From Myxococcota bacterium (lineage in GTDB: Bacteria; Myxococcota; Kuafuiibacteriia; Kuafuiibacteriales; Kuafuiibacteriaceae), in NCBI GenBank assembly GCA_028289325.1, contig JANQQN010000221.1, positions 1 through 17,672 on the forward strand: a stretch of 17,672 bases of DNA, written 5' to 3'. The translations under genes and the position numbers were made by a program. Below the pieces are notes generated by a model. It was not told the origin of the DNA, made no database searches, and saw only the letters and a program-made list of their open reading frames with translations. Of the stretch, positions 10,915-17,672 are shown in pieces (positions within the stretch are counted from its first letter, which is position 1; the number at the start of each line of letters is the position of its first letter).

Positions 10915-10985
10915 CTTCGCGCCGACATGTGTCACCGCCCCCTCGCTGTACGCCCTGCCGCGCAGTCGGTACAAGCGCCGGAGCA

Positions 10986-12398
10986 ATGCCGTCATCGACC
11001 GCGATATTGGTCACGCTCATCGTCTACAAGGCGATCCTGATTCTCGTCGGCCTGTGGGCGCAGCGTCGGACCCGGACCGGCGAAGACTTCTTCCTCGGCG
11101 GCCGGCAGCTCGGGCCCTGGGTGGCGGCGATCAGCGCCTCGGCCAGCTCGTCGTCGGCGTGGACGCTTCTCGGCGTGAGCGGCGCCGCCTACCAGTGGGG
11201 CTTGAGCGCCATATGGCTGTTCCCGGCGTGCGTGGGAGGCTTCGTCTTGAACTGGTTCGTGCTCGCGCCGGCGCTGCAGCGAGCCAGCCACCGCACCGGC
11301 GCCCTGACGGTGACCGAGCTTCTCGCGGGCAGGCACCGGGGCGTCGCCGCCGTGGCCTCCGCGATCATTCTGCTGTCGCTGTGCACGTACGTCGCGGCGC
11401 AGTTTCAGGGGGCTGGGAAGACCTTCAACGAGACCTTCGGCTGGTCCATCGAGAGCAGCATCCTGCTCGGCAGCGGCATCGTGATTCTGTACACCCTCGC
11501 CGGCGGATTCTGGGCCGTCAGCCTCACCGATACCCTTCAGGGGTTGTTGATGGCCGCCACCGCGGTGCTGCTGCCTGTCGCGGCCCTCGGTCAGGTCGGG
11601 CTCGACGGCCTGTTCGCCGACGCCCCAGAGGGGTATCTGAGCCTCACTCGGAATATGGCCGGGCCGGCCGGGCTGGGCTTCGTATCCGGCCTATTGGGCA
11701 TCGGGCTCGGTTATCCGGGCCAGCCCCACGTCGTGACTCGTTTCATGGCCCTTCGGGATGCTCGAGCCGTGGCTTCGGGTCGAACCATCGCCTTGTCGTG
11801 GGCGGTGCTCGTGTACACCGGCATGCTGATCTTGGGCTGGAGCGGCCGCGCGCTCCTGCCCGAACTGGCTGACAACGAGGTGGTGTTCGTAGCCGCGACT
11901 CAGGCCTTGTTCCCGCCCGTCGTGGCCGGGGTCATGCTCGCAGCGGTGCTGTCGGCGATCATGTCCACCGCCGACAGCCAGCTGTTGGTCGCGGCGTCGG
12001 CGGTCACCCATGACCTGGGCCTGGGCCGGGCGCGGCTGGTCCTCGCCGCTCGCCTGGTGATCGTGGGCCTGAGCGTGAGCGCGGTGCTCACCGCCCTGTA
12101 CGGACCGCGGGCCATCTTCGACCGGGTGCTGTTCGCGTGGAGCGCGATGGGGGCCGCGTTCGGGCCGCTGCTCCTGGTGACGGTGCTTCGGGGGCCCGTA
12201 CCGCCGGGGCGTACGCTGTTCGCGATGGTGGTCGGCTTTGTCTTGAGCGTCGCGGCCCACCTGTTCCCCGGCAACCACCTGTTCCCCGCCACCAAGGGTG
12301 GGTTCATGGAGCGGGTCTTTCCGTTTGTGGTGGCCCTGTTGATCGCGGGGTGGGGCCGCGTCGAGCTCAGTGGTGGGTCGTCACGAAGCCGTGAATGA
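10986..12398 (+). CDS. Sodium:solute symporter family transporter (PutP/PanF-like)
   Basis: MPSSTAILVTLIVYKAILILVGLWAQRR..GEDFFLGGRQLGPWVAAISASASSSSAWTLLGVSGAAYQWGLSAIW is the classic SSS N-terminus, and TM helices occur throughout. An upstream in-frame ATG at 10929 adds a non-hydrophobic 19 aa, so 10986 is preferred. Confidence 0.8.
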   Translation: MPSSTAILVTLIVYKAILILVGLWAQRRTRTGEDFFLGGRQLGPWVAAISASASSSSAWTLLGVSGAAYQWGLSAIWLFPACVGGFVLNWFVLAPALQRASHRTGALTVTELLAGRHRGVAAVASAIILLSLCTYVAAQFQGAGKTFNETFGWSIESSILLGSGIVILYTLAGGFWAVSLTDTLQGLLMAATAVLLPVAALGQVGLDGLFADAPEGYLSLTRNMAGPAGLGFVSGLLGIGLGYPGQPHVVTRFMALRDARAVASGRTIALSWAVLVYTGMLILGWSGRALLPELADNEVVFVAATQALFPPVVAGVMLAAVLSAIMSTADSQLLVAASAVTHDLGLGRARLVLAARLVIVGLSVSAVLTALYGPRAIFDRVLFAWSAMGAAFGPLLLVTVLRGPVPPGRTLFAMVVGFVLSVAAHLFPGNHLFPATKGGFMERVFPFVVALLIAGWGRVELSGGSSRSRE

Positions 12399-14538
12399 TC
12401 AATGCGAGAATGATGAGCCCGAACAGCCACGCGCTGACGCCGAACACCCGCATCGAAGTGCGGAAGATAGGATTGGGATCCTCCACGTAGCGGCCTTCGA
12501 CCCGGTTCTCATCCTCCATCCGGGCCCACTCTCGACCTCGTTCCTCTCGGTACTCTTCTTCGGGCACGCTTCCCGTGAAGATGACTTCATCCATCGGGAA
12601 CTTCGACCGCCGCAGATGGGAGTTGAAGAAGTGCACGCCGAAGATGAAGCCGATGGCCAGCAGTGCTTCGTCTGAATGGACGACGAGAGCAATGTTGATG
12701 ACCCACCCCGGCAACAGGTAGGTAAAAAACTCCGGGAACCACAGGATGAGGCCCGATGAGCCAATGATCGCCACCCCCCAGAAGACGGCCCAGTAGTCGA
12801 ACTTCTCCCAGTACGTCCACCGCTCCCAGGTCGGCTTCTTGCCCAGCCCCACGAACCACGCAAAGTGTTTGATGACGTCGGTGATGTCCGACAGCCGGGG
12901 GACCAAGGAGTCCGGGCCCAACAGCGTGCGGAACAACCGTCCTCGCATCAGCTCCGGGCCGAGATGGTAGATGAGCTGTCCGATGTGGGCGAAGAAGTAG
13001 CCGAACGTGATCACCGCGAAGATGCGGTGAAGAAGCCCGGCCATTTCGACCCCGCCCATGAGCCCCAAGACCGTAGACGCCCAGGACGCCTGGGCGAACT
13101 TCAGGGGGGCGCCGGTGGCGGCCAGCCCCAAGAACGAGATGATGACGAAGAAGTGGAGGATGCGGTCGAGCTTGCTGAACCGGCTCACTCGCGGTCCCTT
13201 GAAGATATGCCGGGGCTGGCCGCGATACCGGATGGCGTCGACCCCTTCCCGGATCGCCCACAGCAGCGTGTGCAGTCCGAAGAATGAGAATACCGATACC
13301 AGGAGCGTGGTCATGAACAGATAGATCCAGTACAGCGCCGGGTACTTCTCGCGATCCTTGTGATCGGCGTGGGCCCAAAAGCCGGCGAAGTTCTCCGGCG
13401 CGCCCTCGTGGCATTTCTGGCAGGTCTTCAGCTTGTTCGCCTCCGAGACCTCCGACTCCGGGTCGTCCGGCCCCAAGATGGCGTGAAATCCGTGGCAGTC
13501 GGAGCATTTGGCGACCGAGTCGGCGCCGAGCAAGCTGGCTTTACCGTGATAGCTCTCCACGTAGGTGCTCATCAGCGCCTCGTGGCACGTTCCGCATTCG
13601 TGGATGAGGTCGGCGCGAAAACGCGCCGACGTGGGGACCGCGCCCCCGTGCATCCGGTGACACGTCGTGCACACCGGGGGCGCTTGAGACCCGTCGAGGT
13701 CCTTGTCGGGGCCGCGGTGGTCGTCGGGACCGTGGCCGGGCGACGGCGAGTCCGCGAGGGCGTGGGCCCAGTCGAATCCGTCGCGACGGGCCGCCTCGTC
13801 GTGGGCGCTGCCCACGAAGGCGTCGGCCTGGCGGTCGTGGCATCCGCGGCACGTTTCGGTCACCCGGGCCGGGAACAGCTGTGAATCCGCGCTGGTCGAG
13901 GTCTGCGCGGCGTGGCTGTCGTGGCAGTCGCTACACGCGGCGGCGGTGGCGTCGGGATTCGCCTTCGGCGGCACATCGGGGTCGACCGTGGTCTCCACCA
14001 GCGGGGGCTCCCCCGGGAGCCGATGCCCCGCCGCGCGGCGGTCTTCCCCGTGACACCGTCCGCAGCTCTTGATCTGGGCGACGCCGTTGACCCGGGACCG
14101 AGGATCGTCGGCGGATCGAACGTCGTGATTGCCGTGGCAGCCGACGCAGGTCGCGGTGTCTTCGGCGTGGTCGGTCTTGCCGTGCCGGTCGGCGTGCACC
14201 GAGGTCGCGTACGCCTCTGCCGCCGTGCTGTGGCAGCGGCCGCAGTCGGGCGCGGCCAGGTCTTCGTCGGGCTCTTCGTGCCGGATCGAGGGGTCCTCGA
14301 CGTCGACGTGGCAGCCGATGCAGCCTTCCTTGCCGTGAGCCGTCGCGCGGTACAGGTCGACGTCCAGCTTCGGGGCGTCTTCTTCGCCGACGCCGGCGTG
14401 ACATACGAGGCAGTCCTCATCGCGGTCGGTACCGGGACCTCGATCGTACTCGGGCTCGCCGGCCCGAATGGTGGCCGCGGAGCCCGCGAGCAGTGAGAGC
14501 GCCGCACCGAGGCGGAGGTAGGTCGCGCCGCGTGTCAT
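12367..14538 (-). CDS. CbcL-like fusion: periplasmic 11-heme cytochrome c domain + C-terminal membrane dihaem cytochrome b (HydC/FdnI family); putative quinol oxidoreductase
   Basis: Signal peptide MTRGATYLRLGAALSLLAGSAATIRA. There are 11 CXXCH motifs (CLVCH, CIGCH, CGRCH, CVGCH, CGRCH, CSDCH, CRGCH, CTTCH, CGTCH, CSDCH, CQKCH). Four TM helices follow, with conserved His (FFGLHTLLW, RILHFFVIISF, HRIFAVITFGYFFAH, LVVHSDEALLAIGFIFGVHFF) typical of Ni/Fe-hydrogenase/formate dehydrogenase b-type cytochrome subunits. Its ATG overlaps the upstream gene stop (ATGA). Confidence 0.85.
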   Translation of the reverse strand: MTRGATYLRLGAALSLLAGSAATIRAGEPEYDRGPGTDRDEDCLVCHAGVGEEDAPKLDVDLYRATAHGKEGCIGCHVDVEDPSIRHEEPDEDLAAPDCGRCHSTAAEAYATSVHADRHGKTDHAEDTATCVGCHGNHDVRSADDPRSRVNGVAQIKSCGRCHGEDRRAAGHRLPGEPPLVETTVDPDVPPKANPDATAAACSDCHDSHAAQTSTSADSQLFPARVTETCRGCHDRQADAFVGSAHDEAARRDGFDWAHALADSPSPGHGPDDHRGPDKDLDGSQAPPVCTTCHRMHGGAVPTSARFRADLIHECGTCHEALMSTYVESYHGKASLLGADSVAKCSDCHGFHAILGPDDPESEVSEANKLKTCQKCHEGAPENFAGFWAHADHKDREKYPALYWIYLFMTTLLVSVFSFFGLHTLLWAIREGVDAIRYRGQPRHIFKGPRVSRFSKLDRILHFFVIISFLGLAATGAPLKFAQASWASTVLGLMGGVEMAGLLHRIFAVITFGYFFAHIGQLIYHLGPELMRGRLFRTLLGPDSLVPRLSDITDVIKHFAWFVGLGKKPTWERWTYWEKFDYWAVFWGVAIIGSSGLILWFPEFFTYLLPGWVINIALVVHSDEALLAIGFIFGVHFFNSHLRRSKFPMDEVIFTGSVPEEEYREERGREWARMEDENRVEGRYVEDPNPIFRTSMRVFGVSAWLFGLIILALIIHGFVTTHH

Positions 14539-16286
14539 CGCGGAGCCTCCTTCTTCTTCTTATTCTTGCTGCCGCCCCGTTCGAATGGGTGGCAGCCCAC
14601 GCAACGCTTCGCGGCCGACTCGTGGTCGGTCAGCGTCTCATGGCAGGCGTTGAGGCAGCTGGCCCGATCGCCGCCGAGGGTCTGTTGATGGAAAGTATGG
14701 CAGTCCGCGCACGTCTCGTGGCCTTCGTTTTGGTGAAGAAGGGGCAGCGGTGGCTCGTGGCACGAAATGCACGGCGGGGTCTCCACCGGTGGGTTGACGT
14801 GGATCGAATGGCAGGTGTCGCAGTCTTCTCGGTTCGGCTGATGTCGGCCCACGCCGGCCTTATCATCGTGACAGTCCAGACAGTCCTGCTGCACTGCGCC
14901 CTCGTGGGGGGCGTGGCAGTCCAAGCACTTCGAGTGGTTGCTCGACACGAGACGGCGCTGCTCCTCGTGGCATTTGCCACATGAGGACTTGGCGGCGTTC
15001 TTCGACGCTTCGGGCGCATGATCGGCACCGGCGTGACACTCTACGCACTGGTCGTGACCTTCGACCGGCGCCACGATCTTGGCCGGGGTGGCCTTCGTGT
15101 GCAGGGGGGCGGCGCCGACGTGGCACGACCCGCACAGCTTCGCGCCTTCGGCATCGAGGTCGAACAGATGCGGCTGGTGGCAGCTGATGCAGGTGCCCGA
15201 GTGGAGCGCGTCGTCGGTCTTCGCCTCCTCGTGACAGGTGGTGCAGGTGGTCACTCGGATCAACACCTCGGCGATCGGATGTTGGGGGTGGCACCCGGCG
15301 CAGGGGCCGCGGGTGTCGTCCGCCGGGTGAGCGCGGGCCTCAGGTACGGCGCGGTCTTCGTGGCACCCCAGACACTCCGCCTGGGCCGAGGCCACGACGG
15401 CGTGTGGCCGGTGGCAGCTCAGGCATCGGTCGTGCTCGGGGTGTTCGTCCGCGCCCACCGTCGGCTGAGGCGCGTGACACGAAATGCAGGCTTTCTTGCC
15501 CGACTTCGAGTGCGGCTGATGGCACTCGAGGCACGTGTCGTGACCTGAGAACGTCGTGGTCTTCGGGACGTCGGACGCGTGGCACGTCGCGCACTTCTGA
15601 CGCGCCAACCGGCTCGCTTCGTGTCCGCCGTGGCACTCCATACACTGCTTGGGTTCGGCGAGGGACGTTCGGCCCCTTTGGTCGGCCGACGCGTGGACCG
15701 CGGCCTGATCCTCGTGACACTCGAGGCACGATTTGGGGGCTAGAGCCTGTTCACCGTGGGGTACGTGACACGCCTGACAGTCCTTTTCGTGGACCGCGAC
15801 CGAAGGCGCGACGCCGAACAACGAGGTCAATACGGCTCTTCGGGCATCGCCGTCGTGAACGGCGCCGGGAGGCGGGGCTCGATCTCGACCGTTGGCCGAC
15901 ACCGGCTGGTGGCAGTCGACGCATCCCCAGGGCTCGACCCGGGCCTCGAAGAACTCGTGGCAGCTGAGGCACTCGCGGGCCGCGTCGTTGGCGACCTTGG
16001 CGTGCAGCGCCGAGCGCTGGTCTTCGTGACACCCGAGGCAGCGGTGTTTGACGGCGCGGGTCGGTTGCGTGCGCCCTTCGATGCGATGACACTCCCGGCA
16101 CTCGACCGGCTCGTCCGCCTCCATGTGGGCCTTGTGTAGGGCGTTGGCGAGCGCTTTCTTCTGCTTCTCCGTGGGTTCGCGCTCGACGGAAGCCACGGAC
16201 GCATCCGCCGAAACCGGTGTCGAGGGCTCGGGCGTTTCGCAACTCGTCGCGAGGAGCGCAGCGATGATCAACCGTCGAATCGACAT
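14535..16286 (-). CDS. Multiheme c-type cytochrome lipoprotein, ~25 haem-binding sites (24 CXXCH + 1 CX3CH)
   Basis: Lipoprotein signal MSIRRLIIAALLATSC, then Cys at +1. There are 24 CXXCH motifs plus CLNACH, which I verified at DNA level (tgc ctc aac gcc tgc cat). The gene sits 3 nt after the upstream gene stop and its own stop overlaps the downstream ATG. Confidence 0.85.
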   Translation of the reverse strand: MSIRRLIIAALLATSCETPEPSTPVSADASVASVEREPTEKQKKALANALHKAHMEADEPVECRECHRIEGRTQPTRAVKHRCLGCHEDQRSALHAKVANDAARECLSCHEFFEARVEPWGCVDCHQPVSANGRDRAPPPGAVHDGDARRAVLTSLFGVAPSVAVHEKDCQACHVPHGEQALAPKSCLECHEDQAAVHASADQRGRTSLAEPKQCMECHGGHEASRLARQKCATCHASDVPKTTTFSGHDTCLECHQPHSKSGKKACISCHAPQPTVGADEHPEHDRCLSCHRPHAVVASAQAECLGCHEDRAVPEARAHPADDTRGPCAGCHPQHPIAEVLIRVTTCTTCHEEAKTDDALHSGTCISCHQPHLFDLDAEGAKLCGSCHVGAAPLHTKATPAKIVAPVEGHDQCVECHAGADHAPEASKNAAKSSCGKCHEEQRRLVSSNHSKCLDCHAPHEGAVQQDCLDCHDDKAGVGRHQPNREDCDTCHSIHVNPPVETPPCISCHEPPLPLLHQNEGHETCADCHTFHQQTLGGDRASCLNACHETLTDHESAAKRCVGCHPFERGGSKNKKKKEAPR

Positions 16287-16289
16287 GAC

Positions 16290-17324
16290 TCACTCGTGGC
16301 ACAGCCGACACGGCAGGTCGGTTCGAGCATTGCGCGGGCTGGACCAGCCCGGTGGATGAACGCTGCCCCCGACGCCGCCGACGCGGTGGCAGTCGACGCA
16401 TAGCTGCTCTCCGGCCCCGCTGTGACAGCTTGCGCAGCTGACCGGGTCTCTTCGCGCCGCCGGGCCGTGGGCGTTGCCGCCGGGCGTCGCGCTGACCCAG
16501 CCCGGCGGATGAGGGTTGAACCTCGCGGTGGCGCCAGCGAGCCCGTTTTCGACGTGGCACTGCTGACAGCTCGCCTCGGAGTGGCAGGTGACGCACAGGC
16601 CGCGGTCCGCCGCCGCCTCTCGCGCGTGCCGGCTGCGGAAGCCGGCTCGATGCAGGCCGGACAGCGAGGGGGTCGCGAAGTCCCGTCGCTGGGGCAGGAT
16701 CGCGACGTTGACCCCATGGCAGCTCGCGCATTGCGCTTGGGTATGGCAGGTCTCGCACAGGGCGCGGCTGTTGGCGGCGTCGGTGCTGTGTCGCTGCACG
16801 TAGTCTTCCTCGTGGACGAGGTGAGAGACGGGACGGGTGTGCTCCGTTTCGAGGTTCTGGTGGCAATCGTCGCAGTCGGCGAGCTCGAAAGAGTCCTTGT
16901 GTTCGTGGCACGACAAACACGCGGCCATCCGGGGCAGGAGGGTGTGTTCGTCTTGTTTCACGTCTTGATGGCACCGCGCGCAGTTGCCCGATACCTCGGG
17001 CAGGTGGATGGCGTGTTGAAAGCGAAGGTAACGCTTGGCCATCGATAGGCGGGTGGGCGTGAAATCGAGGCCGTGACACCCACGGCAGGGTCGCTCATCG
17101 TGGGGCTCTTCGTGGCACTCCCGACAGCTATCGTTGTCGGGCATGTGTAGCGGACCGTCTTCGCCGGCCTCCAGGATGCCCTCGTGGCAGGTCGTGCACG
17201 CGATGCCCTCCAGGACGTGGGCGCGGTGCTCGAAGGGGTGGTCGGTGTCCGTGCGCAGACCGAGCACCCGCGCGCAAGCCACGACCAAGATCAGCGTCAG
17301 CGCGATGATGGTGAACCGAATCAT
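16290..17324 (-). CDS. Periplasmic multiheme c-type cytochrome, 13 CXXCH motifs
   Basis: Start chosen at Met preceding the signal peptide/anchor MIRFTIIALTLILVVACARV. Motifs are CTTCH, CRECH, CRGCH, CARCH, CLSCH, CDDCH, CETCH, CASCH, CVTCH, CQQCH, CASCH, CVDCH, CRLCH. The upstream in-frame extension is Arg/Gly-rich and overlapped by a protein-like frame. Confidence 0.8.
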   Translation of the reverse strand: MIRFTIIALTLILVVACARVLGLRTDTDHPFEHRAHVLEGIACTTCHEGILEAGEDGPLHMPDNDSCRECHEEPHDERPCRGCHGLDFTPTRLSMAKRYLRFQHAIHLPEVSGNCARCHQDVKQDEHTLLPRMAACLSCHEHKDSFELADCDDCHQNLETEHTRPVSHLVHEEDYVQRHSTDAANSRALCETCHTQAQCASCHGVNVAILPQRRDFATPSLSGLHRAGFRSRHAREAAADRGLCVTCHSEASCQQCHVENGLAGATARFNPHPPGWVSATPGGNAHGPAARRDPVSCASCHSGAGEQLCVDCHRVGGVGGSVHPPGWSSPRNARTDLPCRLCHE

Positions 17325-17672
17325 AACGCCCCCCACAGCCAGGTGACCCGGAGCAGACCGTCGAGCGCACCCTCGAGCTCCGAGGTCGCGCTCCCTTCGA
17401 TCGCCACCGCGATGATCCATGCTTCGCTCGGTCGGTAGTCGACGGCGATCAGGCCCCACGGCCACCACTCGCCCCGCTGGGGCGCCGGCGCCAGCGCGTT
17501 GGTGGTCTGGACGATGGTCGTCTCGTCGTCGAGGTCGTTGGCCTGATCTGGTCGGACGACCTCCGCCTCCGCCGATAGCGTCCACGCTTGGGTGACGCGC
17601 CACCGAAACGCGAGCCGGGCCCCGGTAAACGCGATGTCCGAGGGGCCCCCGTACCTCGACAGCTGGCCCGAC
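17321..17672 (-). CDS. C-terminal part of a probable outer-membrane beta-barrel (porin-like) protein, 5' end outside window
   Basis: Minus-strand frame ending at TGA 17323-17321 translates to ...IAFTGARLAFRWRVTQAWTLSAEAEVVRPDQANDLDDETTIVQTTNALAPAPQRGEWWPWGLIAVDYRPSEAWIIAVAIEGSATSELEGALDGLLRVTWLWGAL*. It shows alternating hydrophobic/polar beta-strand patterning with aromatic girdle residues (W/Y/F). Its stop overlaps the downstream cytochrome ATG (ATGA). Confidence 0.45.
   Translation of the reverse strand, partial: SGQLSRYGGPSDIAFTGARLAFRWRVTQAWTLSAEAEVVRPDQANDLDDETTIVQTTNALAPAPQRGEWWPWGLIAVDYRPSEAWIIAVAIEGSATSELEGALDGLLRVTWLWGAL

Follow-up and report, generated by a model that had tools for sequence, protein, structure and literature searches.

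A multihaem cytochrome operon from an uncultured Myxococcota member, probably serving extracellular electron transfer

Introduction

Extracellular electron transfer is known mainly from Shewanella, through its Mtr system, and from Geobacter, through its Pcc, Cbc and Imc systems. In both genera, small diffusing cytochromes are thought to carry electrons across the periplasm. NapC/NirT proteins such as CymA are quinol dehydrogenases, and the genes of the Geobacter porin-cytochrome (Pcc) conduit are ordered ombB-omaB-omcB. Here we describe four genes at the right-hand end of contig JANQQN010000221.1 (17,672 bp; the whole contig is called the window below). They encode a predicted outer-membrane β-barrel, a 13-haem cytochrome, a 25-haem cytochrome and an 11-haem cytochrome c fused to a predicted dihaem cytochrome b (the c-b fusion). 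The DNA comes from an uncultured member of the Myxococcota, and the four genes probably form the promoter-distal two thirds of an operon that serves extracellular electron transfer.

Encoding an inner-membrane quinol protein together with an outer-membrane conduit is a principle already published between 2012 and 2018. In Rhodoferax ferrireducens, mtrH is clustered with cymA and mtrABC, and mtoC is clustered with mtoAB in Dechloromonas aromatica, Gallionella capsiferriformans and seven further species (PMC6295460). The c/b-type proteins Dester_0351 and Theam_0871 are likewise encoded within pcc clusters (PMC4245776). All these clusters, like the window, bring together an outer-membrane porin-cytochrome and an inner-membrane c/b protein linked to the quinone pool. 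A first-pass annotation of the window had set it against Geobacter only, where cbcL is encoded apart from the Pcc conduit genes, and had called the joining of the two new; the window fusion is indeed the last gene of a porin-cytochrome operon, but the earlier clusters take that claim of novelty away. The window family nevertheless differs from the mtr/mto clusters in its parts. Its barrel of about 410 amino acids (aa) lacks the signature of MtrB/PioB, the 26-strand porin type; the partner of the barrel is a 13-haem c7-type lipoprotein instead of an MtrA/DmsE decahaem protein; a 25-haem cytochrome is added; and its genes, all on one strand, overlap tightly in a single operon. The family thus leaves the known principle unchanged, and what is new is the arrangement of parts.

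The Pcc systems of Geobacter and Anaeromyxobacter resemble the window in that a barrel gene is followed by a cytochrome gene and the barrel, likened here by its description, has about 20 strands and about 400 aa. In Anaeromyxobacter, the porin has as its partner a protein of 338-344 aa with 12-14 haems (PMC4245776), which the 344-aa, 13-haem protein of the window matches in size and haem number. In contrast to the adjacent cytochrome of Pcc systems, which is soluble and periplasmic with 8-14 haems, the barrel partner in the window family carries a conserved lipobox. The third Pcc gene encodes a 12-haem surface lipoprotein, whereas the product of the third gene here has 25 haems and, in most relatives, an inner-membrane anchor. 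A preprint describes metagenome-assembled genomes (MAGs) of Myxococcota as rich in novel multihaem clusters beside MtrC and CbcL homologs. In the literature, as far as our incomplete coverage reached, we found nothing specific on Polyangia together with multihaem cytochromes or extracellular electron transfer, Myxococcota being mentioned only in passing, and no description of the six-gene architecture, the 25-haem component or the exchange of NapC-type for CbcL-type proteins set out below.

Operon structure

The four genes lie on the minus strand. The barrel gene is represented by its 3' end (17321-17672, 116 codons plus stop), as the right-hand end of the contig falls within it. It is followed by the genes for the 13-haem c-type cytochrome lipoprotein (16290-17324; 344 aa counted from MIRF; 13 CXXCH motifs), the 25-haem c3/c7-type poly-domain cytochrome (14535-16286; 583 aa; 24 CXXCH and one CX3CH; lipoprotein signal LLATSC) and the c-b fusion (12367-14538; 723 aa; 11 CXXCH and a hydrophobic C-terminal domain). 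Direct reading of the sequence bore out this order, as given in the first-pass annotation, together with the junctions: an ATGA stop/start overlap between the barrel and 13-haem genes (17321-17324; GCGTTATGATTCGG), a 3-nt gap between the 13-haem and 25-haem genes (TGAGTCATG) and a second ATGA overlap between the 25-haem and fusion genes (14535-14538; CGCGATGACACGC). The fusion gene has a GGAGG Shine-Dalgarno sequence (14546-14550) 7 nt ahead of its start codon. The overlapping stop and start codons suggest that translation may be coupled. A promoter and terminator scan of the operon was uninformative: it saw 0 internal promoter-like sites, and the 4 terminator-like sites were no excess over the 2.8 expected.

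The haem counts of 13, 25 and 11 also agreed with the first-pass annotation, giving 49 c-haem motifs in all. These 49 motifs fall within 1,650 residues of the three cytochromes, and the other nine proteins of the window have 0 in 3,926 residues; the haem count is therefore far beyond chance. With 54, 31 and 29 histidines (the last count being for the fusion's c domain), the cytochromes have enough for bis-His ligation. The description of the conduit as complete is not borne out by the window, because the contig ends inside the barrel gene and all four close relatives carry two more cytochrome genes upstream. The stoichiometric supercomplex that the first-pass annotation implied goes beyond the sequence evidence.

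Related loci

In these four relatives (L003, L084, L088 and L085, a Tara Oceans marine scaffold), two further genes, both for lipoprotein cytochromes, stand upstream of the window's four genes and on their strand. L003 is syntenic with the window: its fusion is 66% identical and it has the same convergent symporter gene. The first upstream gene of L003 encodes a full-length decahaem cytochrome of the OmcA/MtrC family (TIGR03507, 414.5 bits against a cut-off of 209.3), and an OmcA/MtrC-type gene was found by tblastn in L084, L085 and L088. The second upstream gene encodes 11 CXXCH and 2 CX4CH-type motifs, of the Geobacter GSu_C4xC__C2xCH type (GSu-type below). The whole six-gene operon of the relatives holds about 72 c-haem motifs.

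We then tabulated genes by tblastn in 80 metagenome loci obtained from a scan with the barrel alignment. The 13-haem gene lay directly downstream of the barrel gene in all 59 loci with room for it, and a gene for about 25 haems came next in 43 of 43. Among the 29 loci with room on both sides, every one had a GSu-type cytochrome gene. A NapC/NirT-type tetrahaem gene adjoined the barrel gene in 25 of these 29 (22 divergent, 3 co-directional), without a c-b fusion; in the remaining 4, which had no NapC/NirT gene, the fusion came after the 25-haem gene. Not one of the 29 had both or neither. This either/or swap with a NapC/NirT gene is the strongest evidence here in support of the fusion as the predicted quinone-pool link of the module. 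Comparison of the related loci thus sustains the earlier view that all four genes belong to one conserved module tied to the quinone pool.

Loci of the NapC/NirT variant, such as L086 (Haliangium sp., WP_428266076.1) and L087 (a Polyangiaceae MAG), keep the order of the orthologous genes for the barrel (39-46% identity), the 13-haem protein and the ~25-haem protein, and a GSu-type cytochrome gene lies nearby. They differ from the window in that a small quinol dehydrogenase, usually encoded divergently upstream, replaces the downstream c-b fusion, and in that the 25-haem protein has an inner-membrane signal-anchor and no lipobox.

The neighbourhoods of c-b fusions were examined separately in 80 species-level genome loci, with an iterated barrel hidden Markov model. 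A remote barrel homolog lay within 10 kb of the fusion in only 3 of the 80, from Calditrichia, Bacteroidota and Deferribacteres, and we therefore rejected an obligate pairing of fusion and barrel. In these three loci (L065 5820-14049; L030 7804-21514; L052 9905-17773), the fusion is of a 19-haem version and the remote barrel homolog has a 12-14-haem gene and one for a GSu-type lipoprotein cytochrome as its partners, so the same module logic exists outside Myxococcota.

Some features of single relatives were observed alongside. In the OmcA/MtrC lipoproteins of L003 (2126-4333), L084 (6104-8308), L085 (6237-8405) and L086 (2415-4586), the lipobox Cys is directly followed by about 45 or more residues of collagen-like Gly-X-Y sequence, which could be a stalk keeping the cytochrome off the membrane. 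The fusion gene of L084 (14028-16191) is split into open reading frames of 636 aa and 96 aa; its contig is labelled 3.21x, presumably read coverage, and the split is probably a sequencing frameshift rather than a sign of a pseudogene.

The c-b fusion protein

The fusion consists of a signal-peptide-like N-terminus and a periplasmic 11-haem c domain (residues 1-395; 13354-14538, minus strand), followed by a six-helix b domain (residues 396-723; 12367-13353, minus strand). The 11 CXXCH motifs lie at residues 43-373, and all are invariant in an alignment of 29 homologs. Pfam searches matched multihaem c domains. For the b domain, the profile check proposed with the first-pass annotation did yield a PF01292 match, but at 28.9 bits it stayed under the 30.1 cut-off. 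Many homologs of the fusion have a precomputed PF01292 match, and the domain is a divergent relative of this family without clean Pfam membership. NCBIfam gave weak matches to the formate dehydrogenase gamma subunit.

We built an AlphaFold2 model of the fusion on the 29 homologs. The C-terminal domain was predicted at a pLDDT (predicted local distance difference test) of about 90, with six long helices (400-437, 456-480, 497-531, 576-600, 612-641 and 690-721), five of which are backed by hydropathy peaks (Kyte-Doolittle > 1.5). Foldseek returned E. coli FdnI as the sole significant PDB match (1kqf_C; E 1.7e-4, target TM-score 0.79). A phmmer alignment placed H462, H504, H621 and H636 of the fusion on the FdnI haem ligands H18, H57, H155 and H169; helices 2-5 therefore form the FdnI four-helix core. 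Across fusion homologs of 38-70% identity, H504, H621 and H636 are invariant and H462 is conserved in at least 90%. Through helix 1, the chain leaves the periplasmic c domain and reaches the cytoplasmic side, where an Arg/Lys-rich loop comes next; helix 6 is an addition to the core. The C-terminal domain is thus a predicted dihaem cytochrome b of the FdnI/HydC type with all four ligands within transmembrane helices, as the first-pass annotation had proposed. Further invariant histidines (H423, H518 and H641) lie in or near transmembrane helices 1, 3 and 5; these could be ligands of a third haem or part of a quinone site.

Relatives of the fusion are encoded in at least 597 species-level genomes of many phyla. 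By architecture, 61 of 84 loci have 19 haems in about 925 aa, and 15 have 11 haems in about 700-740 aa. The best genome match to the window fusion has 61% identity. The homolog P0069 (= BAX79136.1; E 3.6e-160, 40% identity over 90% of the fusion) is listed in Table S2 of PMC6295460 as a CbcL/MtrH/MtoC homolog, and the same table holds 11-haem members of 700-730 aa. The haem spacing of the fusion is that of these 11-haem members, save for one low-confidence insert of 30 residues between haems 7 and 8. The family is defined by 416-1,034 aa, 3-23 CXXCH motifs, mostly six transmembrane helices and conserved His (PMC6295460). Judged by sequence, the fusion has every one of these features, and we place it in the family through BAX79136.1, in line with the earlier description of it as CbcL-like.

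The features shared with CbcL/MtrH/MtoC are the signal peptide, the periplasmic multihaem c domain, six transmembrane helices, the conserved His and homology to FdnI/HydC. The helices of GSU0274 are spaced in the same way (285, 351, 399, 477, 511 and 589, against about 400, 456, 497, 576, 612 and 690 in the fusion). CbcL has 9 haems in 619 aa, whereas the fusion has 11 in 723 aa. A menaquinol oxidase/quinone reductase activity of the fusion is a prediction, supported indirectly by its either/or replacement of NapC/NirT-type genes.

The barrel and its 13-haem partner

The window's 116-aa barrel fragment has no Cys, His or Met. Neither the fragment nor a full-length ortholog matched a Pfam or NCBIfam family. 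This ortholog, P0121 of L003 (412 aa, with a signal peptide), is 71% identical to the fragment and models as a β-barrel of about 21 strands without a plug domain, within the about 18-22 strands of a Pcc-type barrel. In structure comparison, TonB-receptor and Occ-type barrels were nearer to the model than MtrB was. A total of 968 members of the family could be detected, every one annotated 'hypothetical'; the members that bear a taxonomic name belong to Polyangiaceae, Haliangium, Myxococcales and soil MAGs. The window fragment belongs to this family of predicted large outer-membrane β-barrels, the barrel itself being seen in the P0121 model, and the earlier call of a β-barrel stands on the ortholog. 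The top-conserved motif of the family, LPATSLFSVLGD (P0121 residues 230-241; L003 6676-6711), sits in a loop of P0121 with pLDDT < 50. A partner protein may make contact there, which a monomer model could not place.

The 13-haem protein starts with a lipoprotein signal, LILVVAC|ARVLGL (lipobox VVAC|ARVLGL). The lipobox, of the form [GAS]-C-x-x-[VIL]LG, is kept in 65 of 65 distinct orthologs; the protein is therefore a lipoprotein rather than a soluble one, which corrects its description as periplasmic in the first-pass annotation. The closest solved relatives are polymers of c7-type units, namely GSU1996 (3ov0, E 3e-11) and ACIII ActA. We also considered an MtrA-like protein and rejected it, as the MtrA/DmsE decahaem model TIGR03508 gave 18.8 bits against a cut-off of 192, with c7 polymers nearest. 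An MtrB/PioB porin and a TIGR03508 MtrA, two marks of a Shewanella-type MtrCAB system, are lacking in this locus. The 13-haem lipoprotein is probably the partner of the barrel.

The 25-haem cytochrome

The 25-haem protein has a median motif spacing of about 19 residues and a density of 23 residues per haem. Its CX3CH motif is CLNACH and is kept as CX3CH in L003 and L001. Pfam matched Cytochrom_c3_2, Cytochrome_C7 and CIII, and there was weak similarity to HmcA, which works with a membrane-bound quinone-interacting complex. The same c3/c7-type units that form the 25-haem and 13-haem proteins are found in the 16-haem HmcA and the 12-haem 'nanowire' GSU1996, from which the window proteins differ by more haems, a higher density, membrane tethering and their place in a porin-cytochrome operon.

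The N-terminus of the 25-haem protein varies among loci. Most NapC/NirT-type loci have an uncleaved hydrophobic anchor, the window, L003, L084, L088 and two other loci have a true lipobox, and L085 has a plain signal peptide. The protein is probably a periplasmic, inner-membrane-proximal wire rather than a surface cytochrome. In the L001 MAG (GCA_016713425.1; 8262-15490), a pair of 25-haem and c-b fusion genes is followed by an overlapping HisKA_3 sensor kinase gene and a response regulator gene.

Proposed electron path and alternatives

In the path that we propose, the FdnI-like dihaem cytochrome b of the fusion would exchange electrons with menaquinol/menaquinone in the membrane and pass them to the fusion's own 11 periplasmic c-haems. 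The 25-haem chain of c3/c7-like units, tethered to a membrane by its N-terminus, would ferry them across the periplasm, and the 13-haem lipoprotein within the roughly 21-strand barrel would take them through the outer membrane. In the relatives, the two surface lipoproteins encoded upstream, a stalked OmcA/MtrC decahaem and a Geobacter-type CxxxxCH/CxxCH cytochrome, would then receive them; for the window, these genes would lie past the contig end. We consider it reasonably likely that the proteins are physically arranged in this order, that electrons flow outward and that the terminal acceptor is an insoluble metal oxide, humics or an electrode-like surface.

Several points weigh against this path. 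A lipoprotein as barrel partner is unlike MtrA and OmaB, which are described as soluble and periplasmic, and which cytochrome enters the barrel is something that we infer. The lipobox of the window's 25-haem protein could direct it to the outer membrane, even to the cell surface. No barrel gene lies within 10 kb of the 25-haem/c-b pair of the L001 MAG, so these two proteins can also function in a different setting. The 29 loci behind the either/or pattern include near-duplicate contigs, and the effective sample is smaller. Of the barrel the window holds 116 aa, and of the presumed surface cytochromes nothing; for its surface end, the path thus rests on relatives at 59-79% identity. As for direction, no feature was found to separate oxidising from reducing CbcL/MtoC homologs (PMC6295460), so the direction of electron flow is unreadable from sequence.

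The same hardware would serve if electrons ran inward, from extracellular Fe(II), reduced humics, a mineral or a partner cell to the quinone pool, which we judge unlikely. An analogous course has been proposed for MtoAB-MtoC/CymA in iron oxidisers, and iron reducers as well as iron oxidisers do have CbcL/MtoC/MtrH members, no sequence feature telling the two apart (PMC6295460). However, the relatives of the window carry a surface decahaem of the OmcA/MtrC family, and known oxidising systems are without one (10.1101/2022.03.26.485925); moreover, the window, a small sample at 17.7 kb, has no genes for carbon fixation or reverse electron flow. FdnI, the template for the fold of the b domain, works as a quinone reductase, a point in favour of the inward course.

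It is quite unlikely that the four genes suffice as a Pcc conduit, with the 13-haem protein inserted in the barrel from the periplasm, as OmaB is, and the 25-haem protein acting as the terminal reductase at the surface, as OmcB does. This was the assignment made in the first-pass annotation. The order of barrel, smaller cytochrome and larger lipoprotein cytochrome is that of ombB-omaB-omcB, the window and its three closest relatives have a true lipobox on the 25-haem protein, and the Anaeromyxobacter pcc partner, with 338-344 aa and 12-14 haems, is like the 13-haem protein (PMC4245776). Nevertheless, the 25-haem protein has an uncleaved anchor, pointing to the inner membrane, in most orthologous loci and a plain signal peptide in L085; the 13-haem protein is a lipoprotein too, in every one of the 65 orthologs; dedicated surface cytochromes, the full-length OmcA/MtrC family member among them, are encoded upstream in the relatives; and L001 has the 25-haem/c-b pair without a barrel gene. 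The mapping onto OmaB and OmcB is therefore probably wrong.

That there is no conduit across the outer membrane, the cytochromes being a periplasmic electron store or a reductase of soluble substrates and the barrel a co-encoded ordinary solute porin, is very improbable. In its favour, the barrel is without a Pfam or NCBIfam assignment, is structurally nearer to TonB-receptor/Occ-type barrels than to MtrB, and its interaction with a cytochrome is a prediction. Against it, all 59 loci with room have the 13-haem gene right after the barrel gene (the two share 4 nt in the window and in L003), the pairing of barrel and multihaem protein recurs with remote homologs in three other phyla, the model of about 21 strands has no plug domain, and no catalytic subunit is encoded in any locus examined.

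If the outward path holds, metal or humic respiration would extend to a group usually regarded as aerobic. Parts like those of Shewanella, Geobacter and Anaeromyxobacter are combined in this family as in a mosaic. Many metagenome and MAG contigs attributed to Polyangiaceae, Haliangium and other Myxococcota carry it, as does the one marine contig from Tara Oceans. With NapC/NirT-type and CbcL-type quinol dehydrogenases serving one outer module, it amounts to a natural swap experiment, and its membrane-tethered 25-haem protein is a candidate for a fixed trans-periplasmic wire. A wider reading, which we offer tentatively, is that the operon family encodes a hard-wired chain, with roughly 70 c-haems besides its 2 b-haems, that needs no diffusing periplasmic carriers, is fitted with an exchangeable quinol cassette (NapC/NirT-type or CbcL-type) and is widespread in Polyangia-like Myxococcota. 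These bacteria, generally seen as aerobic predators, would on that reading be unrecognised organisms of extracellular electron transfer. The tethered 25-haem protein, whose length would in principle suffice, would then, just as tentatively, bridge the periplasm from the quinol site to the barrel-embedded 13-haem lipoprotein, and the latter would pass electrons on to stalked MtrC-like reductases.

Other genes in the window

The G+C content in the window is 62-71%. The nearest named relatives of its RNase J (764-2146) are from 'Myxococcota bacterium' MAGs, at ≤73% identity. A convergent gene of the sodium:solute symporter family (10929-12398, plus strand) shares 32 nt (12367-12398) with the 3' end of the fusion gene; in L003, the symporter and fusion genes are 18 nt apart. 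A second gene of this family lies at 2342-3919 (plus strand). The window also encodes an AraC-type regulator with DUF6597, a cupin, a DUF1203 protein and a DUF885 protein. The symporter, regulator, cupin and DUF genes have no evident link with the cytochrome operon. At 4080-6596 (plus strand), an 838-aa protein with Pfam MVP_shoulder and Vault_3 matches resembles a bacterial homolog of the major vault protein; phmmer found no match to it among PDB sequences at E ≤ 0.001. An 842-aa ortholog adjoins RNase J in the same neighbourhood of L003.

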